64,000 nucleotides of DNA from positions 4,096,001 through 4,160,000 of the forward strand of contig OZ001293.3 of the NCBI GenBank assembly GCA_963921275.4, read 5' to 3'. Shown one piece after another: positions 1,501 to 59,071 of the stretch (positions are counted from its first letter, which is position 1; each line of letters starts with the position of its first letter). The notes under the pieces are model-generated. The model was given only the letters and a program-made list of their open reading frames with translations. It did no database searches and was not told where the DNA came from. This DNA is from an uncultured Hormoscilla sp. (GTDB taxonomy: Bacteria; Cyanobacteriota; Cyanobacteriia; Cyanobacteriales; Desertifilaceae). The position numbers and the translations under genes are program-made.

Positions 1501-1675
1501 GGCAGGTTTTTAAGTTGGCAGTCACTCAACCTTGGTTTGGGGCCCAAAATGTGGACGTGACGGCACCGGAATGGTTGCGGGGTGGCTTGCTACTGCCCCT
1601 CGGAAATAATTTTCAACTGTCTTATGTGAGGCTGTTTATAATTGGGCTCACGGTCCTTTGTATTGTCGGCATTTA
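1477..1675 (+). pseudogene. urtB: Internal fragment of urea ABC transporter permease UrtB
   Basis: QPWFGAQNVDVTAPEWLRGG...YVRLFIIGLTVLCIVGI resembles cyanobacterial UrtB; no start codon, ends at the intron 5' boundary. Confidence 0.65.
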
Positions 1676-4073
1676 GTGCGACTCGTTCAGTGTAAACCAC
1701 CGGTGATAACCGAAGGGGGACCACTGGCAAGGCTCCATTAGCCTTGATAACTTTTAGATGATGGTGGTGAAAGCCCACCCCTCCAGGTGCAGGAGTGACA
1801 GCACTTACCCCACGGTAGCGATGGCATCAATCCGTGAAGCGGGTACGAAAGGCGCCCTGGCTGGTAGCCTAAACCGGTCATCGCCGATTTTTCGCGCAGC
1901 GTGCAAGTAGTCACGGTGAGCGAAAGCAAAGATTTACAGTGTCGTTACGACAAACCAGCGTAATAAGGCTAAACACGCTGGCCCAAAAGGGAAAGGATAA
2001 TGGTCATTGGCGGTTCCTTTTCCGACCAATAAGCACCGACAATAAACCCGGCATAAGGAATCCACCTAAAACTACGACCAATCATCTAGAGGAACGAAGT
2101 AAACCAGGTACATACTCTCAACCACCGGTCGATAGGTTGAGCAGCCACCAAAGGCGCAACATCTGCTTACATTCGGCAGGTTATATCTGGGAAAGATTTC
2201 GCGGAGAAGCTAACGCCTTTCTGTAATGGATGGGATATGCTGACGCCCTCACGGTAACGTCAATTGTAAAGTTGTAAGTAGCAATACATACGTCATGAGC
2301 ACGATGTCAAAATCGATGAATGAATGGAAGGATATCCCCTGGCCTCGGCTGGAACGGGTAGTCTTTAAGTTGCAAAAACGAATTTACAGAGCGGCACAAG
2401 AAGGCAATAAGCAAAAAGTTCGCAGGCTCCAAAGGTTACTGGTAAGCTCCCGGGCTGCCAAATGTCTAGCGGTACGACGGGTTACACAAGATAACCAGGG
2501 AAAGAAGACAGCCGGTGTGGATGGTGTGAAATCACTAACCCCAAAGCAACGCCGAGAACTGGTAGGACAGATTGAAATCTCAAACAAGGCTAAGCCTACA
2601 CGTCGTGTATGGATTCCTAAGCCAGGGAGAGAAGAAAAACGTCCTTTAGAAATACCCACGATGCACGACCGCGCGAATCAAGGGCTCCTCAAGATTGCGC
2701 TTGAACCCGAATGGGAAGCATATATGGAGGGGAACTCATACGGATTCAGACCGGGTCGGGGATGCCACGATGCAATTGCGGCAATATTCAGCAGCATTAA
2801 ACAGAAACCCAAATGGGTATTAGATGCAGATATTGCGAAATGTTTCGACAGGATAGACCACAAAGCGCTAGTCGAAAAATTAAATACTACGTCACCAATC
2901 CGTAAACAAGTACGGGCATGGTTAAAAGCCGGGGTGATTGACAAGAAGATATGGCACACAACTGAGGCAGGAACGCCACAAGGGGGTGTCATATCCCCAC
3001 TGCTAGCCAATATAGCCCTACAGGGGTTAGAGGAAGCAGTAATGGAATTAGCAAAGACACAAAGGGAAAAGCAAAAGCTGACGGTAGTCAGATACGCAGA
3101 CGACTTTGTGATCATGCATGAAGACAGGGAGATGATAGACAGAGCGCAAACAGTGGTGGCAGAGTGGCTAAGAAGAATAGGGCTTGAGTTGAAGGCCGAA
3201 AAGACAAAGATAGCCCACAGGCTAAATGGAGAAAACCCGGGATTCGACTTCCTAGGATTCAATATAAGGCAATATAAAGAGGGAAAATACAGAACCGGCA
3301 AATCAACAAACGGAACACCCCTAGGATTCAAAACCCTAATCAAACCCAGTAATAAGTCCATAGGGAAGCATAAAGAACGGTTATCAGAAATGGTAACTAG
3401 CCATATAACAGCACCACAAGCGGCCCTAATAAGCAGGCTAAACCCGATAATAAGGGGATGGTCAAACTACTTTAGGACAGTGGTAAGCAAGGAAATTTAC
3501 AGCGATATGGACAACTACCTATGGAACATCCTATGGCAATGGGCCAAAAGGAGGCACCCTAACAAGTCAAGTAACTGGATAACCTATAAATACTGGTCTG
3601 TAAACCAGGATGCTAAATGGCGATTCCGAAGCAAGACAAAAGAGGGTGATATGAAGATACGTAAACACTCCGAAACTGAGATAATCAGACACGTAAAAGT
3701 GAAAGGGACCGCAAGCCCATACGACGGGAACCTCACATATTGGAGCACAAGATTAGGCAAAAGCCCCGAACTGAGTAAAAGGGTAGCAACGCTACTCAAG
3801 CAGCAAAAGGGAAAATGCCAACAGTGCGGACTAACGTTTATGGATAGTGACAAATGGGAAGTTGACCATATCATGCCCCTTTCACTAGGAGGTAAGGACC
3901 GGTATGACAACCTACAGTTGCTACACAAACACTGCCACGACAAAAAGACTGCCAGCGATGGCAGTAGCCGTACCCATGACAAGGGTGGCGTGACCGAGGA
4001 GCAGGATGAGGCGAAAGTCTCATGTCCGGTTTTGAAGACGAGTCGGTCCGGTGACGGACTGGCTTAGTTTAAT
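1676..4073 (+). mobile_element. Group II intron (RT/maturase/HNH-encoding), copy 1
   Basis: Starts GTGCG at 1676; domain V/VI-like GAGCAGGATGAGGCGAAAGTCTCATGTCCGGTTTTG...GGCTTAGTTTAAT end; boundaries defined by alignment with copy 2. Confidence 0.92.
2295..4067 (+). CDS. ltrA: Group II intron reverse transcriptase/maturase with C-terminal HNH endonuclease
   Basis: RT0 (AVRRVTQDNQGKKTAGVDG), PQGGVISPLLANI, YADD, domain X (LNPIIRGWSNYF), CQQC...EVDH...NLQLLHKHCH HNH. Confidence 0.95.
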   Translation: MSTMSKSMNEWKDIPWPRLERVVFKLQKRIYRAAQEGNKQKVRRLQRLLVSSRAAKCLAVRRVTQDNQGKKTAGVDGVKSLTPKQRRELVGQIEISNKAKPTRRVWIPKPGREEKRPLEIPTMHDRANQGLLKIALEPEWEAYMEGNSYGFRPGRGCHDAIAAIFSSIKQKPKWVLDADIAKCFDRIDHKALVEKLNTTSPIRKQVRAWLKAGVIDKKIWHTTEAGTPQGGVISPLLANIALQGLEEAVMELAKTQREKQKLTVVRYADDFVIMHEDREMIDRAQTVVAEWLRRIGLELKAEKTKIAHRLNGENPGFDFLGFNIRQYKEGKYRTGKSTNGTPLGFKTLIKPSNKSIGKHKERLSEMVTSHITAPQAALISRLNPIIRGWSNYFRTVVSKEIYSDMDNYLWNILWQWAKRRHPNKSSNWITYKYWSVNQDAKWRFRSKTKEGDMKIRKHSETEIIRHVKVKGTASPYDGNLTYWSTRLGKSPELSKRVATLLKQQKGKCQQCGLTFMDSDKWEVDHIMPLSLGGKDRYDNLQLLHKHCHDKKTASDGSSRTHDKGGVTEEQDEAKVSCPVLKTSRSGDGLA

Positions 4074-4218
4074 TGTCTCTCTAGCCAGGTGCTCAGCTGG
4101 CTGAACCCTTTGTCGTCGTTGTAGAAGTGTTTTGGTGAGAGTTTTGCCGTTCTCAAGCATCAGAGCGACATGAAATGTCTTTTTGCGCTCTGTCGATGCC
4201 TAGAACTGTTTGTGTCAT
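4074..4218 (-). pseudogene. IS110 family recombinase N-terminal fragment (frameshifted)
   Basis: ATG at 4218; with frame corrections reads MTQTVLGID..KKTFHVALMLENGK...FYNDDKGFSQLSTWLERQ, a DEDD_Tnp_IS110-like start; cut by the intron 3' end. Confidence 0.7.
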
Positions 4219-4224
4219 AGCGCT

Positions 4225-4471
4225 GTACCTCAATTTTAACTCAATTTTAAGTGGATAGCATACAAATTGTATGCTGACTGGTCAATGCAACTAACCGCGG
4301 TTTAGCAGGCTCAACAAAGCGTGGGTGGCCTAAGATACTGGACAGTATCAGGATCAAACCAGTCGTGATTCACCTGCAGGGAGCTAATCTACACAACAGA
4401 CTTAGCCTTAAGGTGTATTAGGGGCACGCCAGCTTCACCTGACCGAAGTAGAGAGAGTGTTTGAGTGCTCT
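4225..4471 (-). ncRNA. Putative IS110 bridge RNA (left-end non-coding region), probably degenerate
   Basis: Lies directly upstream of the IS110 ORF; minus strand carries GCGTGCCCCT...CTGTTGTGTAGATT (target-loop-like) and CAGTATCT...GCATACAA (donor-loop-like). Confidence 0.6.
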
Positions 4472-4671
4472 GGTCGGGGTCGAGCTGGGAATCACTCCCC
4501 AACCCTCCAAGAGCGGAACCGGGCTTGCGACTTTCACCGCACCCGGCTACTGGGCAGTAGGGCCTTGTCATTGGTAGGATTACTGGGGATTACTCCCGTT
4601 GTCCCTCATCTCATGTAATTTCTCCCCTTTCCTGGTTGGTAAGTGGCGCTGCCGGATAACCTTTAGTATTA

Positions 4672-5683
4672 ACTCAAGTTGCGACCTATAAAAATTGGAT
4701 ACAAAAAGCTATGATAAAGAGAATTATTTTCAACTCTAATCCCTTAGATGTAACAGCATGAATTGACTTGGGAAACAAATTTGTGATTCGACTAAAACAG
4801 GTTTCAACTTGTTTTCTTGTTACTTTTTGTATATATTCAAAACAAGAATATTCTTTTTTTTTTGAGTTCTTTTTTCGCAAAGGTTTTAACATTATACTTG
4901 ACGACTCTTTTAGTAAATCCTCTAATTGATAATCATTATAAGCTTTATCTCCATAAACTATTGAATTTGATGGTAAGTCAAAGCCAAAAGATTGCAAAAC
5001 TTTAAAATCATTATAACTACCAGGATCTAGATAAAATTCTATTGGCTTTCCATTTTTGTTTACCAACATATGAACTCTTAATCCATAAAAATAACGTTTT
5101 TTACTGGCAATATACCCTCGATATTCTTCCTTGTTATAAATTTGGCATCTATCAATCCTAATATTATCACATACTGGCACCGGGAAACTATCAAGAATAT
5201 ATTCTTGACCCGGATTGAGATATTTAAATGTTTGAGCTATAACTTGGAAGAAAAACATCCAAATTGGTTCGTCAATATTGTGTAATCGACGATTGAACCT
5301 ACTTTTACTTAACAGATTTTTTATATACTTGTGTTGGACCATAAATTGACAAGAGCGATCGTGGTGTCCTCCGAAAAAATATGCAGCAACTAATCCGACT
5401 GTCATCACTTCGGCATTGTTCATTTTTACTTGTGGATCTTCTTTTATATTTAACGCTTTTAGTAGCTCGTCACAAAGAACAAAAATTGTTGTAATCATAT
5501 CTTCCATCATCTACATCCCCCAGCAATTAACTATTATTTTAGTACATTATAACCTATAAACAGCCAACCCGCCGTCTAGCACAAAAAAAATATAATTTTG
5601 TATCAAAAGCTACGAAATATCCCAAATATCTGTAAAGTCTAAGTGGGTAATTCATATTTTTTTTAATAGGTCGCAACTTAGGT
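4672..5683 (-). mobile_element. IS982 family element, copy 1
   Basis: TIRs ACTCAAGTTGCGACCTAT / ATAGGTCGCAACTTAGGT; 5-bp TSD TATTA. Confidence 0.9.
4686..5510 (-). CDS. IS982 family DDE transposase
   Basis: 274 aa; ILDSFP, YFYGLRVH, GDKAY, RKQVET motifs. Confidence 0.9.
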   Translation of the reverse strand: MMEDMITTIFVLCDELLKALNIKEDPQVKMNNAEVMTVGLVAAYFFGGHHDRSCQFMVQHKYIKNLLSKSRFNRRLHNIDEPIWMFFFQVIAQTFKYLNPGQEYILDSFPVPVCDNIRIDRCQIYNKEEYRGYIASKKRYFYGLRVHMLVNKNGKPIEFYLDPGSYNDFKVLQSFGFDLPSNSIVYGDKAYNDYQLEDLLKESSSIMLKPLRKKNSKKKEYSCFEYIQKVTRKQVETCFSRITNLFPKSIHAVTSKGLELKIILFIIAFCIQFL

Positions 5684-5946
5684 TATTACCAATTTATCTG
5701 AGTCCGTTTCACCAGTTATCCCACCTTCGCATGCTAGGTATTGGGGCGTATTAGGGTTACTTTAGCCCGAGATTTCCTACTGTCACCGACCCCTGTTTGC
5801 TTATCCCAGGCATTAATTAGGGCTTTTGCTTCTTGGGCCATCCCTCCCACCGTAGCTTGCGCTTCACATCTGACTGGTCTCGGTAGACAGCACACGATGG
5901 GTTACTTCGTTCCCTAGTATCATTTCACGATGCTTTTAGGTTCCTA

Positions 5947-8077: not shown

Positions 8078-8721
8078 TGTTTGGCCTCCGTAAACTGGTT
8101 ATTTTGTATCCCCGGCGACGGTTTTAGTAAATTATATACAGGACTGAGGCAAATTGTCAAACCGAGTCCTAGATTTAGCTTCTGGTGGGCGGTACTGAGT
8201 TATGATATCATCAGGGAGCGCGATCGTTTGCTTTGAGAACGGCGATCCATGGCCTCCCATCCGCCGGTGCGATCGCCGGACATGAGAATCGTTGGAGAGA
8301 TTTGGAATTGTCAAATTGAGGACATTCCCACGAAGCTCAATTAATGGTAAAACCATCTTCACTGATGCAGGGCATCTGCGATGACAATTGTAGACTATAA
8401 TTGATAGATAAGATGGACTATTCCCAAATTCGCGCCGAAGCAGAAAGACTGCTGGAGATACTTTATGTAACACCGTTTGAAGACTGCTGCCCCTTGACCA
8501 AACAATTTTCCCATCTGATGGTTAGACCGGGTTTGTATGCTATCCGTCATCGGGTTGATGGTATATTAACTCAAGTTGCTACCTATAAAAATTGCGACCT
8601 CCCAGACAGCCATTTTGGTAAATTTATTCGCCAAAATGCCGTTTTGGGGTAAATCACAAGGTAATTTTGGCTGATTTTGGCTGATTTTGGCGCTTTGCAA
8701 GGAGTTGAGGTTCTATAGGTA

Positions 8722-9733
8722 ACCTAAGTTGCGACCTATTAAAAAAAATATGAATTACCCACTTAGACTTTACAGATATTTGGGATATTTCGTAGCTTTT
8801 GATACAAAATTATATTTTTTTTGTGCTAGACGGCGGGTTGGCTGTTTATAGGTTATAATGTACTAAAATAATAGTTAATTGCTGGGGGATGTAGATGATG
8901 GAAGATATGATTACAACAATTTTTGTTCTTTGTGACGAGCTACTAAAAGCGTTAAATATAAAAGAAGATCCACAAGTAAAAATGAACAATGCCGAAGTGA
9001 TGACAGTCGGATTAGTTGCTGCATATTTTTTCGGAGGACACCACGATCGCTCTTGTCAATTTATGGTCCAACACAAGTATATAAAAAATCTGTTAAGTAA
9101 AAGTAGGTTCAATCGTCGATTACACAATATTGAGGAACCAATTTGGATGTTTTTCTTCCAAGTTATAGCTCAAACATTTAAAGAGCTCAATCCGGGTCAA
9201 GAATATATTCTTGATAGTTTCCCGGTGCCAGTATGTGATAATATTAGGATTGATAGATGCCAAATTTATAACAAGAAAGAATATCGAGGGTATATTGCCA
9301 GTAAAAAACGTTATTTTTATGGATTAAGAGTTCATATGTTGGTAAACAAAAATGGAAAGCCAATAGAATTTTATCTAGATACTGGTAGTTATAATGATGT
9401 TAAAGTTTTGCAATCTTTTGGCTTTGACTTACCATCAAATTCAATAGTTTATGGAAATAAAGCTTATAATGATTATCAATTAGAGGATTTACTAAAAGAG
9501 TCGTCAAGTATAATGTTAAAACTTTTGCGAAAAAAGAACTCAAAAAGAAAAGAATATTCTTGCTTTGAATATATACAAAAAGTAACAATAAAACAAGTTA
9601 AAACCTGTTTTAGTCGAATCACCAATTTGTTTCCCAAGTCAATTCATGCTGTTACATCTAAGGGATTAGAGTTGAAAATAATTCTCTTTATCATAGCTTT
9701 TTGTATCCAATTTTTATAGGTCGCAACTTGAGT
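8722..9733 (+). mobile_element. IS982 family element, copy 2
   Basis: Same TIRs as copy 1; 6-bp TSD TAGGTA inside the MITE TIR. Confidence 0.9.
8895..9719 (+). CDS. IS982 transposase, probably catalytically dead
   Basis: GDKAY is GNKAY and QVET is QVKT relative to the other two copies. Confidence 0.8.
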   Translation: MMEDMITTIFVLCDELLKALNIKEDPQVKMNNAEVMTVGLVAAYFFGGHHDRSCQFMVQHKYIKNLLSKSRFNRRLHNIEEPIWMFFFQVIAQTFKELNPGQEYILDSFPVPVCDNIRIDRCQIYNKKEYRGYIASKKRYFYGLRVHMLVNKNGKPIEFYLDTGSYNDVKVLQSFGFDLPSNSIVYGNKAYNDYQLEDLLKESSSIMLKLLRKKNSKRKEYSCFEYIQKVTIKQVKTCFSRITNLFPKSIHAVTSKGLELKIILFIIAFCIQFL

Positions 9734-9768
9734 TAGGTAGCAACTTAGGTTATATTATATATTGGTAA

Positions 9769-10535
9769 GTGCGATTCGTTTAGCATAAACCGCCAGTGAT
9801 AACTGGTGGGGGACCGCTAGCAGGGTTTCATTAGCCCTAACAACTTACAGATGATGGTGGTGAAAGCCCACCCCTCCAGGTGCAGGAGTGAAAGCATATT
9901 CCTTACAGTAGCGATGGCATCAATCTGTAAAGCAGGAATAAAAGGCGCACTGGCCGGTAGCCTAAACCGGTCAACGTCAAGCAAGTAGCCATGATGAGCA
10001 TAAAGCAAAGATTTGCAGCGTCGTAAATATGAACCAGTGTAATAAGGCTGAGACACTGGCCCAAAAGGGAAAGGATAATGGTCGTTGGCAGGTTTATCTC
10101 TGACCAACAAGCACTGACAATAAACCCGGCGTATGGAATCCATCTAAAGCTACAACCAATCATCTGTAGGAACGAAGTAACCCGGTTACGCACTCTCTAT
10201 CACCGGTCGATAGGTAGAGTAGTCACCAAAGACGTAACATCTGCTCTCATTAGGCAGGTCGTAGCCGGAAAAGGATTGAGTGGAGAAGCAAACGCCTATT
10301 TGTAATGAGTAGGATACGCTGACGCTCTCACGGTAATGTCAAAGGTAAAGTTGCAAGTAACAGTACAAACGTTATGAACAAGGTTTCAAAACCGATGTAT
10401 GAATGGAAGACCATCCCCTGGCGAAAGTTAGAACGGAGGGTTTTCAAGCTGCAAAAGCGAATTTACAGAGCGGCACAACGTGGCAATACACTGCCACGAC
10501 GTAAAGACTGCTAACGATGGTAGTTGCCGTACCTA
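9769..10535 (+). mobile_element. Group II intron remnant with internally deleted RT ORF
   Basis: GTGCGATTCGTT start, colinear with 1676-2400; ORF MNKVSKPMYEWKTIPW...RAAQRGN jumps to the HNH tail CHDVKTANDG; 3' end lost at intron copy 2. Confidence 0.85.
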
Positions 10536-12933
10536 ATTAAACTAAGCCAGTCCGTCACCGGACCGACTCGTCTTCAAAACCGGACATGAGACTTTCGCCT
10601 CATCCTGCTCCTCGGTCACGCCACCCTTGTCATGGGTACGGCTACTGCCATCGCTGGCAGTCTTTTTGTCGTGGCAGTGTTTGTGTAGCAACTGTAGGTT
10701 GTCATACCGGTCCTTACCTCCTAGTGAAAGGGGCATGATATGGTCAACTTCCCATTTGTCACTATCCATAAACGTTAGTCCGCACTGTTGGCATTTTCCC
10801 TTTTGCTGCTTGAGTAGCGTTGCTACCCTTTTACTCAGTTCGGGGCTTTTGCCTAATCTTGTGCTCCAATATGTGAGGTTCCCGTCGTATGGGCTTGCGG
10901 TCCCTTTCACTTTTACGTGTCTGATTATCTCAGTTTCGGAGTGTTTACGTATCTTCATATCACCCTCTTTTGTCTTGCTTCGGAATCGCCATTTAGCATC
11001 CTGGTTTACAGACCAGTATTTATAGGTTATCCAGTTACTTGACTTGTTAGGGTGCCTCCTTTTGGCCCATTGCCATAGGATGTTCCATAGGTAGTTGTCC
11101 ATATCGCTGTAAATTTCCTTGCTTACCACTGTCCTAAAGTAGTTTGACCATCCCCTTATTATCGGGTTTAGCCTGCTTATTAGGGCCGCTTGTGGTGCTG
11201 TTATATGGCTAGTTACCATTTCTGATAACCGTTCTTTATGCTTCCCTATGGACTTATTACTGGGTTTGATTAGGGTTTTGAATCCTAGGGGTGTTCCGTT
11301 TGTTGATTTGCCGGTTCTGTATTTTCCCTCTTTATATTGCCTTATATTGAATCCTAGGAAGTCGAATCCCGGGTTTTCTCCATTTAGCCTGTGGGCTATC
11401 TTTGTCTTTTCGGCCTTCAACTCAAGCCCTATTCTTCTTAGCCACTCTGCCACCACTGTTTGCGCTCTGTCTATCATCTCCCTGTCTTCATGCATGATCA
11501 CAAAGTCGTCTGCGTATCTGACTACCGTCAGCTTTTGCTTTTCCCTTTGTGTCTTTGCTAATTCCATTACTGCTTCCTCTAACCCCTGTAGGGCTATATT
11601 GGCTAGCAGTGGGGATATGACACCCCCTTGTGGCGTTCCTGCCTCAGTTGTGTGCCATATCTTCTTGTCAATCACCCCGGCTTTTAACCATGCCCGTACT
11701 TGTTTACGGATTGGTGACGTAGTATTTAATTTTTCGACTAGCGCTTTGTGGTCTATCCTGTCGAAACATTTCGCAATATCTGCATCTAATACCCATTTGG
11801 GTTTCTGTTTAATGCTGCTGAATATTGCCGCAATTGCATCGTGGCATCCCCGACCCGGTCTGAATCCGTATGAGTTCCCCTCCATATATGCTTCCCATTC
11901 GGGTTCAAGCGCAATCTTGAGGAGCCCTTGATTCGCGCGGTCGTGCATCGTGGGTATTTCTAAAGGACGTTTTTCTTCTCTCCCTGGCTTAGGAATCCAT
12001 ACACGACGTGTAGGCTTAGCCTTGTTTGAGATTTCAATCTGTCCTACCAGTTCTCGGCGTTGCTTTGGGGTTAGTGATTTCACACCATCCACACCGGCTG
12101 TCTTCTTTCCCTGGTTATCTTGTGTAACCCGTCGTACCGCTAGACATTTGGCAGCCCGGGAGCTTACCAGTAACCTTTGGAGCCTGCGAACTTTTTGCTT
12201 ATTGCCTTCTTGTGCCGCTCTGTAAATTCGTTTTTGCAACTTAAAGACTACCCGTTCCAGCCGAGGCCAGGGGATATCCTTCCATTCATTCATCGATTTT
12301 GACATCGTGCTCATGACGTATGTATTGCTACTTACAACTTTACAATTGACGTTACCGTGAGGGCGTCAGCATATCCCATCCATTACAGAAAGGCGTTAGC
12401 TTCTCCGCGAAATCTTTCCCAGATATAACCTGCCGAATGTAAGCAGATGTTGCGCCTTTGGTGGCTGCTCAACCTATCGACCGGTGGTTGAGAGTATGTA
12501 CCTGGTTTACTTCGTTCCTCTAGATGATTGGTCGTAGTTTTAGGTGGATTCCTTATGCCGGGTTTATTGTCGGTGCTTATTGGTCGGAAAAGGAACCGCC
12601 AATGACCATTATCCTTTCCCTTTTGGGCCAGCGTGTTTAGCCTTATTACGCTGGTTTGTCGTAACGACACTGTAAATCTTTGCTTTCGCTCACCGTGACT
12701 ACTTGCACGCTGCGCGAAAAATCGGCGATGACCGGTTTAGGCTACCAGCCAGGGCGCCTTTCGTACCCGCTTCACGGATTGATGCCATCGCTACCGTGGG
12801 GTAAGTGCTGTCACTCCTGCACCTGGAGGGGTGGGCTTTCACCACCATCATCTAAAAGTTATCAAGGCTAATGGAGCCTTGCCAGTGGTCCCCCTTCGGT
12901 TATCACCGGTGGTTTACACTGAACGAGTCGCAC
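10536..12933 (-). mobile_element. Group II intron, copy 2 (apparently identical to copy 1, inverted)
   Basis: Same 619-nt 5' offset and 6-nt 3' offset around an identical 590-aa ORF. Confidence 0.92.
10542..12314 (-). CDS. ltrA: Group II intron reverse transcriptase/maturase/HNH
   Basis: Protein identical to 2295-4067. Confidence 0.95.
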   Translation of the reverse strand: MSTMSKSMNEWKDIPWPRLERVVFKLQKRIYRAAQEGNKQKVRRLQRLLVSSRAAKCLAVRRVTQDNQGKKTAGVDGVKSLTPKQRRELVGQIEISNKAKPTRRVWIPKPGREEKRPLEIPTMHDRANQGLLKIALEPEWEAYMEGNSYGFRPGRGCHDAIAAIFSSIKQKPKWVLDADIAKCFDRIDHKALVEKLNTTSPIRKQVRAWLKAGVIDKKIWHTTEAGTPQGGVISPLLANIALQGLEEAVMELAKTQREKQKLTVVRYADDFVIMHEDREMIDRAQTVVAEWLRRIGLELKAEKTKIAHRLNGENPGFDFLGFNIRQYKEGKYRTGKSTNGTPLGFKTLIKPSNKSIGKHKERLSEMVTSHITAPQAALISRLNPIIRGWSNYFRTVVSKEIYSDMDNYLWNILWQWAKRRHPNKSSNWITYKYWSVNQDAKWRFRSKTKEGDMKIRKHSETEIIRHVKVKGTASPYDGNLTYWSTRLGKSPELSKRVATLLKQQKGKCQQCGLTFMDSDKWEVDHIMPLSLGGKDRYDNLQLLHKHCHDKKTASDGSSRTHDKGGVTEEQDEAKVSCPVLKTSRSGDGLA

Positions 12934-13487
12934 TGAACTAACGGACATAACAACTCAATCAATTTTCACGAGTGGAGAATCTTCTTGCCACTATCAAGTC
13001 CAAGCAACAAGGGCGTCATAGTGCAACATAAAAAAATCAGGCAGGACCCTTTGTTTTAGCAACTAATCAACTTGATAAATTAGCGCTAAATTCAGAAAAA
13101 ATGCTCCACATATATAAAACCGAGCAGCAGGAAGTGAAGCGTTGTTTTAAGTTTGTTAAAGACCCAATGTTTTTTGCGGATAGTGTATTTATTAAATCTC
13201 CAAAATGAATTGAAGTTTTAGGTTTAATTATGGCTCGATCTTTGTTAGTGTATAAAGTAGTAGAGCGACAGATAAGGCAAACACTTAAAGGAACAGGTTC
13301 AGGAGTAAAAAATCAGTTAGGTCCGCTGACGGATAGACCGACCCTACCTTGGATATTTCAATGTTTTCAGTCAATCCATATCTATATATCAGGCGGTAAC
13401 AAACAGATTTCAAATATTAATGAGGAGCGTTTGCACTTTCTGAAATTCTTCCCCCAGCATGGAGCGCGGTACTATTTACTGGCGTAA
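12934..13487 (+). pseudogene. IS1634 family transposase C-terminal fragment
   Basis: FVLATNQLD...YK..Q..VKRCFKFVKDPMFFADSVFIKSP*IE.LGLIM...NQLG..TDRPTL.WIFQCFQSIH; internal stop. Confidence 0.8.
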
Positions 13488-13867
13488 AATTCAAGAGGGT
13501 AAATTATGTAAAAACACACATTCAATAATGAGTATAACTTAGAGATATTTCACCTCTGAGTAGCTTGATATTGAGCAATAATAGAAAAATTTTAGTAATT
13601 TTATGTCAAGTAAGTTGTTGTTGTTGGTTGGTATAATTTTTTGGGTATTTTAAGGGACGCTGCATTGGATATTTGCCTATATTTGTGATATTGTAAGAGT
13701 TAAAAAGACCGATGTTTTATTTATGTAGTACACTTGTCGTGCGTAATGTAGGTTTTAGCGCTCCCACGAGATGCAGCATCAGGAGACATCGAAGGAACTA
13801 CCAGAACCTGCTTGCCTACGGGGCCATAGCCTCCTAATTTTGTCCGGAGTATTGGCATTAATATCAT

Positions 13868-14232
13868 GCTCAATTCCTCCTTGTCTAAAGATTAATAGTC
13901 ATTTAATATCATATATTTGAAATCCACACGCGCACATTTCTTGCGCGTGAAAACAAATTCCCATTGGTAACCACGAAAATCTGCTCTGGGATTTTGTGCA
14001 ATTCCTCTCCCAGGTTTTTTATAGTCATTTAACGTCATATGTCAGGCTTGACACCCGATTCAGAGATGCGCGTGAAAACAATCTTTCTGTGGGTAGCCAC
14101 GAAAATCTACTCTCGAACCTTGTGCAATTCCTCTTTACTTGTAATTTTATAGTCATTTAATGTCATCTCTAAGAGCCTCGTGTAAGAGATGCGAGTGAAA
14201 ACAGACTCCCCGTTGGTAGCCACAAAACATGC
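13868..14232. repeat. Degenerate tandem array, about 3 units of 126-128 bp with four conserved boxes
   Basis: ATAGTCATTTAA at 13895, 14021, 14149; CAATTCCTC at 13871, 13999, 14125; GCG(C/A)GTGAAAACA and GGTA(A/G)CCAC(G/A)AAA in each unit. Confidence 0.8.
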
Positions 14233-14234
14233 TA

Positions 14235-14970
14235 CATGTACGAGTAGCTATATCTAGTATAACAAGTTTAGCGACTTGGAGTTTTGGGATGGTGATGACG
14301 CACTCTTCAAGCGTGGATAGGATTTCAGAATTTATTGCACAAATTAACTCCGAAAAACCAAATACAGTTCGGCAAAGATTATGCATAGTGGTATCAAAAC
14401 TCAAAAGTAAAAAAGGGAACATGCATAACAGAAATAGATGTAACTACTTGTTTTGTACCCTTGCTAAAATGGATATTAAGCTTGTGGCCACAAGATTTTC
14501 CTTACTTACCTTTAGCTATAGATGCTACTAATATTGGAGACAACTTTACTATCTTATCAATTAATGTCTTGATTAGAGGTAGTGGTATTCCCGTGGTCGG
14601 GCAAGTAGTGATCGCTTTTACAGAAAAAGCTTCTTGGCAGCCATTATGGAAAGAATTATTTTCTTCATTAAAAGCAATACTCCGGACAGTTTTTAGAGCC
14701 CAGAACCACCCGAAGTGCAAGGGTTGCGGCAAAAGGCGCACTCGATGTCTCCGGAGAGCGCTATTCGCACTACCCCGGAGACATCGTTCGCTAATTTTTT
14801 CTTTGTCAGCCCCAGGGCTAACGTCGCCTATATTGCTCTATTGAGCAAAGGCTTACGCTGCAAGCCAGAAGGCTACGTACAGTCAAAACGGTCCGGACTA
14901 TTGTAAAAGGTATGGTGCCATCTGAGATGATGACCATTGTATCTGCCGTAAGCGGACTGTATGCTCGAAC
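14235..14970 (+). pseudogene. IS4-like DDE transposase fragment, frameshifted and interrupted by a MITE
   Basis: WSFGMVMT, NTVRQRL, LLKWILSLW, LAIDATNIGDNFTILSINVL; resumes after the MITE (GMVPSE..IVSA..GLYA). Confidence 0.6.
14675..14903. mobile_element. MITE with CAATACTCCGGAC / GTCCGGACTATTG TIRs
   Basis: 6-bp TSD TAAAAG; relatives at 49275-49493 and a single end at 13841-13854; contains a 42-nt hairpin at 14743-14786. Confidence 0.8.
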
Positions 14971-23426: not shown

Positions 23427-23944
23427 CAATTAGTGAATATTGACATCTTGCTAGGCCGGGTACGTTTCCAGGCGGGAACATTGCGGGAACATTTCCCGAA
23501 CCCTAAAGGGCCCGGCTACACGAACAAAGCCCGCCTGCGCGGGCTAAATTACAAAAGTGAGATGCGCCCAGGAACTCGGCTTTATGATGCAAGGGGCTTT
23601 GCCTTGACAATTAGTGAATATTGACATCTTGCTAGGCCGGGTACGTTTCCAGGCGGGAACATTGCGGGAACATTTCCCGAACCCTAAAGGGCCCGGCTAC
23701 ACGAACAAAGCCCGCCTGCGCGGGCTAAATTACAAAAGTGAGATGCGCCCAGGAACTCGGCTTTATGATGCAAGGGGCTTTGCCTTGACAATTAGTGAAT
23801 ATTGACATCTTGCTAGGCCGGGTACGTTTCCAGGCGGGAACATTGCGGGAACATTTCCCGAACCCTAAAGGGCCCGGCTACACGAACAAAGCCCGCCTGC
23901 GCGGGCTAAATTACAAAAGTGAGATGCGCCCAGGAACTCGGCTT
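23406..23944. repeat. 181-bp tandem triplication including the mfd 3' end and a REP-like hairpin
   Basis: Three near-identical units at 181-bp spacing; AAAGCCCGCCTGCGCGGGCT REP-like motif also near 36550. Confidence 0.9.
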
Positions 23945-27503: not shown

Positions 27504-27627
27504 TATGGAATATGAAGAATCTGCGAGTTTTACTAATCGGCGGTTATGCAGCAATGCTGGCGTATTGCACCCATCTATTATCTCAAAATTTGACTGGCAA
27601 TTCCCAGGTGGCTAAAGCAGAAGCGAC

Positions 27628-27722
27628 TCCAGTCATGATTCGGTTCAGGGAGCTAATCTACACAACAGACTTGTCAAAGTGTGTTTGAGTCCTCTTCCAC
27701 CAGACTAATCCTAGCATACAAG
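27628..27722 (-). mobile_element. IS110 left-end remnant (internally deleted) with target junction
   Basis: Homologous to about 4360-4470; minus-strand junction TGCCGTGCCC-CT-TGTATGC. Confidence 0.65.
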
Positions 27723-27973
27723 GGGCACGGCAGAGCGTAGATTATCGGTGATGATGTAAAAGGTAACAGCTGCCGTGTCCCGGGGCGATCGCAAATGTGA
27801 TTTCGGGACAGGGCATCATTATCGGCTATGATGAGGAAGGAGACAAACAGGCTGCTTTGTGCCCCGGCGCAAGGCGATAGCCAATAGGTGGTCGCAGCAG
27901 GCAGATGAGAGATTGAGGTGCAAGATGAGAGGAAAGGAGACAGGAGGTGATGTATAATGCCAGGAAGTGAAGT

Positions 27974-43889: not shown

Positions 43890-44003
43890 GCTAAACTACA
43901 CAACAGACTTGCCTTGCATGGGTCTTAGGGGCACGCCAGCAACACCTGACCGCAGTAGAGAGAGTTTGGGTCCTCTTCCACCAGACTACTCTTAGCATAC
44001 AAG
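43890..44003 (-). mobile_element. IS110 left-end remnant with intact target-binding-loop region and target junction
   Basis: Homologous to 4383-4470; minus-strand junction TGCCGTGCCC-CT-TGTATGC. Confidence 0.7.
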
Positions 44004-44279
44004 GGGCACGGCATCAATAAATTATCGGGTGATTGAATTAATTAACTCACGCCATGCCCCGGACGGCACCGCATATTATTGCCGATAACAATATAATTGG
44101 CGATCGCCCTAAATCCTTCCCCGAAAACTCCAGATGCGATCGCCCCAAATTCTTCCCCGAAAACCGAGATGCGATCGCCCGTAAAGAGGAAAGTATCGGG
44201 GTTGTTACCATTGGTCATATTAATTAAAAAACGACGAGCAGTTTCGTAATCCATCTCCAGTAATATCTGGCGCAACACT

Positions 44280-47678: not shown

Positions 47679-49236
47679 TTATTCATCATAGTCAAATGGA
47701 TGGGGTCGAGCCGGGAATCGCTTCCCGACCCTCCCTTGAGGAACCGGACTTGCGATTTTCACCGCATCCGGCTACTGGGTACTAGGCCCTTTTCATAGGT
47801 AGACTTAATAGGAATTACTTCCGTTAGCCCTTGCCGCCTGTCTTTTCTTCCCTTTCCTGGTTTAGCGAGTGGTTGTTCTGATAACCGTTAGTATCACCAT
47901 TTTCAAGTCAGTTTTACCAGTTATCCATACCTTATCCTCCACTTGCGTTTCGGATTAGTTCCGTGGCTTTTTAGGATTACTCATTCCAGCAGCTTCCTAG
48001 TATCACCGACCCACGTCAGCGCTGGCTACCCAGCATCATCTACATTACTGTAGATGTTATCCCAGGAATTACCCCGGGCATTCGCTTCTTGGGCCATCCC
48101 TCCCCCCGTGGCTTGCGCTTAACATCTAACTTGTCCTGATGGACAGCACACGAGAGGTTACTTCGTTCCCTAACAACATTTCGCGATACCTTTAGGTCCA
48201 CACTATACCCCGGGAGCTATTTGAGTACTATATTAGCCAGAGTCTAAAACTAATACTAGCTACCATTTCCTTTTTAGGCCAGCGCATATAGCCTTATTTC
48301 GCTGGTTCCTTATAACGAGGCTTGCACATGTTTGCCTGCTCTAACCTTGGATATCTTTCCTAGCGGCGTCACCGGCTTAGGCTGCCAGTTATCCTACATT
48401 TGAGTCCTCGCTTAGCACCACGATGATGTCGCTTCGTAGCACCGAGGACCGGTGTCACCCCCGTACCTGGGGGGAGGGGAATTTAACCCCCATGCGGTCA
48501 GAGTTCCTGGCTAATGAAACCGGGCTAGCGTTCCGTGTTTGACCACGTTAGGCTAGAACGAATCGCACAGACCCATCAAGGGTGCTAAAAGCGCCCCAAA
48601 CACAAATCCACCAGCATGGGCCCAGTATGCAATTCCGCCCATATTAGCGGGTGCATTCAGACTGGCAAAGCTAGAAATCGCTTGGGTGACAAACCAAATA
48701 CCCAGAAAAACCATCGCTGGGATGCGAATGGTAGTGATAAAATACCCCAGGAAAACCAATGTGAGAACTTTAGCCCGGGGAAACCTGATAATGTAGGCTC
48801 CCATTACACCTGCGATCGCCCCTGACGCGCCCAAGGAAGGGATATCAGAAGACTGGGAAAAGAACCACTGGGTCAATGCCGCCAACATCCCGCAGATCAG
48901 ATAGAAGATGATAAATTTGACATGACCCAGTTTATCTTCCACATTGTTGCCAAAAATCCAGAGAAACAACATATTCCCTAACAGGTGCATCCAACTCCCG
49001 TGCAGGAATTGGGAGGTAAACAGAGTCAGCCACTCTGGCACCGGTTGGTTTACTGCCACGCCAGTAAAGCTAGCAGATAGCTCCCTGGGAACCACTGCAA
49101 ACAGGTGGTAGAATTCTCCTAGTTCTTGGGGTGCCAAACTAACTTGATACAGAAAAATCAGGATATTCGTAGCAATCAGCCCATAGGTAAAATAGGGGGT
49201 TGATTGGGTGGGATTTTCGTCATGTAAGGGAAACAT
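47679..49236 (-). CDS. Rhomboid family intramembrane serine protease (exons 49236-48569 and 47697-47679; unspliced ORF ends at 48553)
   Basis: FLHGSWMHLLGNM, GASG, AHAGG. Confidence 0.88.
47698..48568 (-). mobile_element. Complete-looking ORF-less group II intron (~870 nt)
   Basis: 5' GTGCGATTCGTTC at 48568; DV AGCCGGATGCGGTGAAAATCGCAAGTCCGGTTC; DVI ending CGACCCCATCC; no RT ORF. Confidence 0.85.
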
Positions 49237-58059: not shown

Positions 58060-59071
58060 ACTCAAGTTGCGACCTATAAAAATTGGATACAAAAAGCTAT
58101 GATAAAGAGAATTATTTTTAACTCTAATCCCTTAGATGTAACAGCATGAATTGACTTGGGAAACAAATTGGTGATTCGACTAAAACAGGTTTCAACTTGT
58201 TTTCTTGTTACTTTTTGTATATATTCAAAACAAGAATATTCTTTTCTTTTTGAGTTCTTTTTTCGCAAAGGTTTTAACATTATACTTGACGACTCTTTTA
58301 GTAAATCCTCTAATTGATAATCATTATAAGCTTTATCTCCATAAACTATTGAATTTGATGGTAAGTCAAAGCCAAAAGATTGCAAAACTTTAACATCATT
58401 ATAACTACCAGGATCTAGATAAAATTCTATTGGCTTTCCATTTTTGTTTACCAACATATGAACTCTTAATCCATAAAAATAACGTTTTTTACTGGCAATA
58501 TACCCTCGATATTCTTCCTTGTTATAAATTTGGCATCTATCAATCCTAATATTATCACATACTGGCACCGGGAAACTATCAAGAATATATTCTTGACCCG
58601 GATTGAGCTCTTTAAATGTTTGAGCTATAACTTGGAAGAAAAACATCCAAATTGGTTCCTCAATATTGTGTAATCGACGATTGAACCTACTTTTACTTAA
58701 CAGATTTTTTATATACTTGTGTTGAACCATAAATTGACAAGAGCGATCGTGGTGTCCTCCGAAAAAATATGCAGCAACTAATCCGACTGTCATCACTTCG
58801 GCATTGTTCATTTTTACTTGTGGATCTTCTTTTATATTTAACGCTTTTAGTGGCTCGTCACAAAGAACAAAAATTGTTGTAATCATATCTTCCATCATCT
58901 ACATCCCCCAGCAATTAACTATTATTTTAGTACATTATAACCTATAAACAGCCAACCCGCCGTCTAGCACAAAAAAAATATAATTTTGTATCAAAAGCTA
59001 CGAAATATCCCAAATATCTGTAAAGTCTAAGTGGGTAATTCATATTTTTTTTAATAGGTCGCAACTTAGGT
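58060..59071 (-). mobile_element. IS982 family element, copy 3 (transposase 58074-58898)
   Basis: Same TIRs; 7-bp TSD TATAATA; D/D/E residues intact. Confidence 0.9.

Follow-up and report, generated by a model that had tools for sequence, protein, structure and literature searches.

The bridge RNA locus and its recombinase remnant

The stretch analysed here, called the window throughout, comprises 64,000 nucleotides (nt) of the forward strand of contig OZ001293.3 (positions 4,096,001 to 4,160,000, assembly GCA_963921275.4) from an uncultured Hormoscilla sp., and all coordinates below are window positions. Between 4472 and 4074, read on the minus strand, lies a remnant of an insertion sequence (IS) of the IS110 group, relic 1, in which a non-coding left end is followed by the start of a recombinase gene. 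An initial annotation, made from the letters of this stretch, had read the left end as a bridge RNA gene programmed against a repeat resembling repetitive extragenic palindromes (REPs), and all the strings that it quoted were found on the minus strand where it had placed them. The parts of relic 1 are as follows; the loops were assigned by the architecture set out in the sections of PMC11208158 that describe it.

4074–4218, minus strand: recombinase pseudogene, codons 1 to ~48; ATG at 4216–4218, two frameshifts, cut at 4074
4219–4472, minus strand: remaining non-coding IS110 left end of relic 1, delimited by alignment to an intact relative (L001) and to two further relics in the window (relics 2 and 3)
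4267–4450, minus strand: decayed bridge RNA gene homologue with both binding loops, placed by covariance model R1
4377–4441, minus strand: target-binding loop, stem CAGG(TGA)AGCT / AGCT(C)CCTG
4420–4428, minus strand: left target guide CGTGCCCCT, with AGCTGG just before it at 4429–4434
4389–4392, minus strand: right target guide ..GTAG, part of the 7-nt TGTGTAG at 4389–4395
4388, minus strand: handshake A of the target loop
4389–4399, minus strand: CTGTTGTGTAG, then ATTAGCT
4276–4364, minus strand: donor-binding loop, stem GACTGGT (4358–4364) / ACCAGTC (4276–4282)
4333–4341, minus strand: left donor guide CCAGTATCT (family form ACAGTATCT)
4333–4340, minus strand: CAGTATCT, then TAGGC...GCCT
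4291–4305, minus strand: right donor guide region CTAAACCGCGGTTAG (family form CATTnACAAGGTTAG), two of seven pairing positions kept
4267–4274, minus strand: GCATACAA, 3' of the donor-loop stem and within a 17-nt palindrome

The recombinase remnant occupies three different frames (MTQTVLGID / KKTFHVALMLENGKTLTKT / FYNDDKGFSQLSTWLER) within 145 nt and therefore contains two frameshifts. Read through with X at the breaks, it matched P0001, a 323-residue IS110 recombinase with domains PF01548 and PF02371, at 75% identity (E = 1.7e-11). The three single-frame pieces gave no match in Pfam, and a 42-residue piece gave none in the Protein Data Bank (PDB), because such pieces are too short and the reading with X is needed. 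The cyanobacterial family that includes P0001 is large (7071 of the 8000 proteins scored reached E ≤ 1e-20); P0001 aligned over its whole length with the IS621 transposase (8wt6, E = 8.6e-74) and over residues 6–316 with the ISCro4 transposase (9t56, E = 8.4e-78). When the window was searched with P0001 by tblastn, 4076–4218 was the sole recombinase trace, the remainder of the gene being absent from the window. A candidate second recombinase start at 12954–13019 was rejected as noise (E = 2.7), and blastn of the plasmid collection with 4074–4480 gave no match.

A covariance model of relatives identifies the bridge RNA gene

To collect relatives, an alignment of 25 family members was used to scan a single genome of each species, and this yielded 78 loci. 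The closest among these, L001 of Microcoleus asticus IPMA8, is complete except for a possible frame break near the start of its open reading frame (ORF): only residues 13–323 of P0001 align, at 97% identity. Its left junction reads ...CGTGTCC-CT-TGTATG and its right junction ...ACAGTAT-CT-ACAGG. A contiguous 338-nt blastn match, with 73.6% identity, joins L001 to window positions 4452–4115 and spans left end and ORF start. About 30 loci share a conserved 61-nt block (window 4439–4379), which lies roughly 190 nt ahead of the ORF.

RNAalifold on a plain MAFFT alignment returned 11 pairs only and was replaced by a hand-drawn structure with a covariance model. This model, R1, was built from 31 non-redundant left-end segments of cyanobacterial relatives, excluding the window sequence, and has 177 positions and 37 pairs, its helices drawn by hand and checked column by column. 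In the window, R1 matched relic 1 over its full length (4450–4267, minus strand; model positions 1–177; 58.5 bits, E = 1.2e-16), the match stopping 49 nt upstream of the recombinase ATG. The antisense match over relic 1 was weak (E = 0.1). Across the 78 loci R1 gave 80 matches; full-length matches adjoining a recombinase ORF stop just upstream of the ORF start, and the model also reached copies whose proteins are only 47–50% identical and copies from non-cyanobacterial metagenome-assembled genomes. No bridge RNA family of Rfam matched in the window, nor in intact L001, and the silence of Rfam is uninformative because the intact element gets no match either.

The helices of R1 are supported by covariation. 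In the alignment fitted by the model, a procedure that biases pair counts towards the structure, 84.5% of 2266 cells formed standard pairs, compared with 64.6% after shuffling; changes on both sides (compensatory) occurred in 32 of the 37 model pairs, and none of 500 shuffles reached any of the observed pairing measures. Sliding the partners by 1–3 columns left 29–44% paired. Intact relatives also fold unaided into two domains of stem and internal loop in their minimum free energy (MFE) structures, and relic 1 itself retains 29 of the 37 model pairs as standard pairs, the other 8 being non-canonical.

These matches bear on the idea that the resemblance to a bridge RNA gene is accidental, or that the stretch comes from the neighbouring group II intron, or from the exon of that intron, and not from an IS110 element. 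An intron end does abut the segment at 4473, and its single-sequence fold is unremarkable; the idea is already contradicted by the L001 blastn match and by the match to R1, a model independent of the window, and the recombinase N-terminus also stands at the expected spacing. We regard this explanation as scarcely credible.

One further structure lies between the donor loop and the ORF. A perfect 17-nt palindrome, GCATACAATTTGTATGC, occupies 4258–4274 (minus strand) and gives a hairpin with z = −2.45; at this position L001 carries a different hairpin. Its 3' arm is included in TTGTATGCTA (4256–4265, minus strand), a 10-base sequence identical to the left-end terminus of relics 2 and 3, and a promoter-like TTGACC-17-TATGCT at 4257–4285 (minus strand) overlaps the palindrome.

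Guides of the relatives track their insertion sites

We compared guides with junctions after setting the element ends without reference to the guides: the left end was the nearest exact CTTGTAT upstream of the RNA and the right end the first GTATCT after the ORF. Where one genome carries several copies, comparing them places the ends at the same positions. Regular guide columns were available in 74 of the 80 R1 matches; the counts that follow cover junctions with an exact CTTGTAT or GTATCT motif within the span searched, after removal of duplicates.

In intact relatives, the segment aligned to CGTGCCCCT equals the 7 bases plus CT that lie left of the element. Among 45 distinct left junctions, the guide agreed with the 7 flank bases at all seven positions in 31, at six in 10, at five in 2, at four in 1 and at one in 1, which upholds the assignment of the left target guide made in the initial annotation. 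Counting one junction per class (19 classes), 118 of 133 positions matched, against a mean of 59.9 and a maximum of 92 in permutations, none of 10,000 being as high as 118. On the other side, the segment aligned to ..GTAG is the complement of CT plus the AC right of the element. Over 56 distinct right junctions, guide position 1 matched in 55 and position 2 in 53, while positions 3–5 matched in 24, 13 and 19; with one junction per class (18 classes), the first two positions matched in 34 of 36 cases, against a permuted mean of 18.6 and with none of 10,000 permutations as high. The CT core was present in all tallied junctions of the relatives, in relics 2 and 3, and in both left guides of relic 1.

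The donor loop was read in the same way. The right-end terminus of the relatives, ACAGTAT-CT, equals their left donor guide ACAGTAT, and at four junctions the two covary, both reading ACGGTAT. Five copies show GCGGTAT versus ACAGTAT, and the A-to-G changes of the GCGGTAT copies would still wobble-pair with the bottom strand. The donor of the relatives reads ACAGTAT-CT-TGTAT, and relics 2 and 3 start CT-TGTATG, in keeping with the donor CAGTAT-CT-TGTAT originally proposed. The 3' side of the donor loop reads AT..ACAAG in 47 of 65 distinct rows, with G after CAAG in 53 of 65. This pattern is the split right donor guide of IS621, for which the relevant part of PMC11208158 gives A157-U158 / C162-G165 with the handshake at 166. 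The relatives place this guide at 4291–4305 in relic 1; GCATACAA, which had been taken for it, falls outside the donor-loop stem, in the 17-nt palindrome. As a side observation, 4 of the 31 aligned copies (L012, L015, L027 and L030) carry ACTCTCG or ACTCTTG in place of the right donor guide ACAAGG, although their left ends still begin CT-TGTATC; the change may reflect either decay or a different mode of pairing.

The right end of the relatives is short: in most copies, the core ends 20–24 nt past the stop codon of the recombinase. In 27 of 38 distinct right-end/left-end pairs, a TTGACA with at most one mismatch ends 15–16 nt before the end of the core, and in the other 11 a TTGAC word lies farther upstream; the left end starts TGTATCTT or TGTATGTT. 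The TTGACA and the left-end start fit the joint promoter that the portion of PMC11208160 on IS621 describes as rebuilt upon circle formation.

A predicted target in the arm of a palindromic repeat

The guides CGTGCCCCT and ..GTAG of relic 1 predict the target CGTGCCC-CT-AC. The target proposed at the outset, CGTGCCC-CT-ACA, stands through AC and loses its final A, since position 3 of the right guide matches in no more than the 24 of 56 right junctions counted above. L001 differs from the window subfamily by one base in the guide and likewise in the flank (CGTGTCC). The left junction of relic 1 itself is lost. Two further relics in the window retain theirs.

43890–44013, minus strand: relic 2, same subfamily; R1 match 43940–43890, E = 1.4e-4, target loop only
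27583–27732, minus strand: relic 3; R1 match 27712–27583, E = 0.023

Both have the left junction TGCCGTGCCC-CT-TGTATGC. Relic 2 (left target at 44004–44010, core at 44002–44003) reads gaTGCCGTGCCC-CT-TGTATGCTAAGAG... and has, 70 nt downstream, the same two guides as relic 1; its left guide (43927–43935) agrees in cis with its own left flank at seven of seven positions. It is truncated, ending after the target loop. In relic 3, with its core at 27721–27722, internal deletions have taken out the left target guide and the greater part of the donor loop.

On their upstream side, relics 2 and 3 are flanked by ~75 nt of mutually homologous sequence, in which an arm, CCGGGGCATGGCG / CCGGGACACGGCAG, repeats TGCCGTGCCCC imperfectly and in inverted orientation; with this inverted arm upstream of both, the two relics therefore lie in copies of one palindromic repeat, each in the right arm. 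The repeat is an imperfect palindrome of ~75 nt with arms GGGGCAyGGC / TGCCGTGCCCC, and has only two copies in the window, both occupied. In the Microcoleus loci, the analogous site CCCGCCCCTAC occurs unoccupied 29 times in 431 kb, against a chance expectation of about 0.2 occurrences. An A-rich lead (..gtgaa/..aaaa) directly precedes it at 29 of 29 sites, and in the printed flanks gcgggttt stands some 35–40 nt upstream at 27 of the 29.

For the claim of a REP-like target, the window offers only the two occupied copies of the palindrome, and the 29 of 29 Microcoleus free sites in one repeat support it by analogy. Relics 2 and 3 together with these free sites show insertion into palindromic repeats to be a habit of the family, as it is for IS621 and ISPpu9/10.

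We further observed that the 29 free perfect sites (L007–L040) lie within a stereotyped palindromic repeat, gcgggttt..~30 nt..ggtgaaCCCGCCCCTAC, and that the site flank GGTGAA is similar to the GGTGAAG found in the RNA itself ahead of the left guide. In L008, L018 and L019, the IS110 copy and its flanks lie within a unit of ~2.03 kb repeated at 99% identity and bearing inverted ends, ATACCAATT...AATTGGTAT, which looks like an IS nested in another repeated element.

Relic 1 as a probable inactivated element related to IS621

Taken together, the findings make it very probable that 4472–4074 (minus strand) is an inactivated fragment of an IS110-group element closely related to IS621, comprising most of a left end, bridge RNA gene included, and the start of a DEDD/serine recombinase gene. 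In all features testable at the family level this is a bridge RNA gene of IS621 type; the right donor guide and the promoter fail in relic 1.

Several observations weigh against this assignment, beside the bias of the pair counts and the exclusion of junctions noted above. Folded alone, relic 1 adopts another MFE structure, without the two-loop shape, and its folding energy is no better than that of shuffled sequences (z = −0.89); the fold with two internal loops, a check named in the initial annotation, thus fails for the single sequence and is borne out by the family covariation, the folds of the relatives and the pairs kept in the R1 alignment. The 5' stem-loop of the published architecture is unsupported (z about 0): relic 1 lacks this part, and in L001 and relics 2 and 3 the short folds were no better than shuffles. 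The left junction with the single agreeing position, L046, departs from the rule that guides equal flanks. The guide CGTGCCC occurs in 0 of the 78 loci, the nearest intact copy, L001, having CGTGTCC and a left end only 73.6% identical. Finally, a right end, a right junction and free CGTGCCCCTAC sites are all absent from the window, and the right half of the target was for this reason taken from the relatives. In the window there is likewise no right end resembling ACAGTATCTAC, and words resembling TGCCGTGCCCCT are not enriched (7 found, 4.8 expected). Two candidates for missing parts of the element were rejected: the sequence past a second copy of the neighbouring intron A (12938 onward) is not IS110, and the 32 nt (9736–9767) leading up to the 5' half of intron B are not the left-end start.

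Relic 1 is almost certainly dead, to judge from its lesions. The first ~26 nt of its left end are missing, and with them have gone the core, the TGTATG half of the right donor and the −10 element; its homology to L001 and to relics 2 and 3 begins a few bases past the end of the intron at 4473. In the target loop, the inner hairpin is weakened (AGAC to ATAC), and the left donor guide CCAGTATCT has its first base changed. The segment of the right donor guide reads CTAAACCGCGG where the family has CATTnACAAGG; the guide itself, TAAACCGCG, keeps two of seven pairing positions and no longer fits the CT core, a failure of relic 1 only and not of the family. With neither right end nor left-end start, the rebuilt joint promoter is lost, and native expression, which needs the joint of left and right ends, has no right end in the window to draw on. 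The loss of the left-end start, the mutated right donor guide, the weakened inner stem, the two frameshifts, the cut gene and the missing right end together argue that the element is dead. The initial annotation had implied a working guide, which a truncated and inactivated copy does not offer; it had also called the donor loop altered, rightly, for a different reason, the alteration being the mutated guide at 4291–4305.

The changed right donor guide, with CCGCG for ACAAG, might instead record reprogramming to a different donor end rather than decay. Five of the seven pairing positions differ, yet the flanking scaffold GCCTGC..GGTTAGT is kept. The new bases, however, no longer pair with the CT core, although the left donor guide of relic 1 still ends in CT; the sister relics 2 and 3 start CT-TGTATG, and relic 1 has many further inactivating lesions. 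We consider reprogramming highly improbable and decay the better description of this guide.

It is also conceivable, if unlikely, that the RNA of relic 1 or its target loop is still transcribed, by read-through or from another promoter, and acts in trans with the recombinase and donor loop of an intact member elsewhere. Both target guides, the handshake A and the basal stem of the loop are intact and identical to those of relic 2, and the IS621 bridge RNA works in trans according to the account in the available part of PMC11208160. Against such use stand the loss of the junction promoter along with both the left-end start and the right end, the position of the sole promoter-like site downstream of the RNA, the mutations in the target-loop inner hairpin and right donor guide, and the absence of an intact recombinase from the window and of an intact subfamily member from the 78 loci. 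That the orphan target loops, intact in relics 1 and 2, are used in trans by a live member to steer insertions, excisions or inversions to CGTGCCC-CT-AC arms seems to us very unlikely; were it true, the clustering of rearranged mobile elements around the relics could be a footprint of RNA-guided rearrangement.

Live members of the family would follow the life cycle shown in print for IS621, in the parts of PMC11208160 and PMC11208158 that treat it, and deduced for the cyanobacterial family from sequence. A live element would excise as a circle, and the circle joint would rebuild a promoter from TTGACA in the right end and TATCTT/TATGTT at the left-end start. This promoter would drive an RNA of ~180 nt with two internal loops. 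The first loop would pair with the target, through 9 nt that correspond to the left flank with the CT core and through a further 4 nt or so that complement CT and the right flank; the second would pair with the element's own joint, ACAGTAT-CT-TGTAT, and the recombinase would exchange strands at CT. The target loop of relic 1 would accordingly have read CGTGCCC-CT-AC, the right palindrome arm in which the sister relics 2 and 3 inserted.

Comparison with characterized systems

The element resembles IS621 of Escherichia coli, as presented in the portions of Durrant et al. 2024 (PMC11208160) and Hiraizumi et al. 2024 (PMC11208158) that were available, in its recombinase family, in an RNA gene located in the left end, in two internal loops, and in a left target guide of 9 nt, CT core included, together with a 4-nt right target guide, GTAG, followed by a handshake A. 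At the level of the family, and not in relic 1, it also shares the split right donor guide AU..(N)CAAG followed by G and a promoter rebuilt at the joint; insertion into palindromic repeats is a further likeness. Unlike IS621, it has a cyanobacterial host and a different target, CGTGCCC-CT-AC here and CCCGCCC-CT-AC in most Microcoleus copies, and the window copy is a truncated pseudogene; the likeness was drawn from the protein and the published description. The IS621 strings given in the initial annotation do not occur in the text available from PMC11208160 and PMC11208158 and are unconfirmed.

Many Microcoleus copies also differ from IS621 in having a much longer left end. In copies of the Microcoleus/Tychonema type (L002–L033), left ends measure about 330–700 nt, with tandem GCGATCG-rich repeats of ~20 nt between the junction promoter and the bridge RNA ahead of which they stand. 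With such long, repeat-bearing left ends, the RNA would start far from the promoter, unlike in IS621.

ISCro4 (PDB 9t56) is the best solved-structure match of the family recombinase and was compared by protein alone. ISPpu9 and ISPpu10 of Pseudomonas putida, in the accessible part of bioRxiv 10.64898/2026.03.19.712850, are similar in that IS110 elements insert into intergenic repeats of REP or stem-loop type, with the target beside a structured GC-rich arm; host and subgroup differ. With the IS1111 group the element has in common the recombinase fold and the RNA-guided logic, as outlined in the relevant part of PMC11208160. In that group, by contrast, the RNA lies in a long right end and the subterminal inverted repeats are long, whereas here it is the left end that carries the RNA, and the right end is short.

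Thousands of bridge RNAs across IS110 elements had already been predicted by covariance model, as stated in the consulted portion of Durrant et al. 2024 (PMC11208160). The kind is thus already known, and the cyanobacterial set with its targets is the new part; a full-text literature search for 'bridge RNA' with 'cyanobacteria' returned 7 papers, of which none dealt with the subject. The bridge RNA, its guides and the predicted target were readable from the raw sequence and were then confirmed by an independent model. The outcome is a cyanobacterial IS621-like family (Microcoleus, Tychonema, Pseudanabaena, Chamaesiphon, Leptolyngbya and others) in which 19 left-guide and 18 right-guide classes track insertion sites, a set that may help in choosing bridge recombinases native to cyanobacteria. 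For the window, the annotation gains three dead IS110 left-end relics that mark palindromic repeats, nested with group II introns and another IS.

Mobile elements stacked around relic 1

Relic 1 is bounded on both sides by other mobile elements.

1676–4073, plus strand: group II intron A, complete, from Rfam and Pfam matches; GTGCG at 1676
4473–4551, minus strand: 3' end of group II intron B, domains V–VI; Rfam RF00029, 41.9 bits (gathering score 40)
4670–5685, minus strand: IS4/IS5-like DDE element; ORF 4686–5510, Pfam DDE_Tnp_1_3

The 3' end of intron A interrupts the recombinase gene at 4074, and the 3' end of intron B abuts and truncates the IS110 left end at 4473. The intron A ORF (2295–4067, plus strand) encodes a reverse transcriptase/maturase/HNH protein of 590 residues. 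Intron A is present in two essentially identical inverted copies, at 1672–4074 (plus strand) and 10535–12937 (minus strand), the 5' flanks of which have only TT(T/C)A in common. Intron B, ~83% identical to intron A, is split: its 3' part lies at 4473–4669 (minus strand) and the 5' 720 nt at 9768–10488 (plus strand), 5 kb away and in opposite orientation. Each half adjoins one copy of the same DDE insertion sequence. This IS4/IS5-like element, with a DDE transposase of 274 residues, has three copies in the window, at 4670–5685 (minus strand), at 8720–9735 (plus strand) and with its ORF at 58074–58898 (minus strand); the first two are inverted and 99% identical.

Elsewhere in the window, a domain V–VI signature at 47700–47776 (minus strand) marks a third group II intron. 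Degenerate fragments resembling transposases of IS4/IS1634 type, judged from translation alone, lie beside the second copy of intron A at 13000–14850 (plus strand). Three Rfam CRISPR-DR28 matches barely over threshold (23523–23546, 23704–23727 and 23885–23908, plus strand) are spaced exactly 181 nt apart, and this region, 23523–23908, is more suggestive of a 181-nt tandem repeat than of a CRISPR array.

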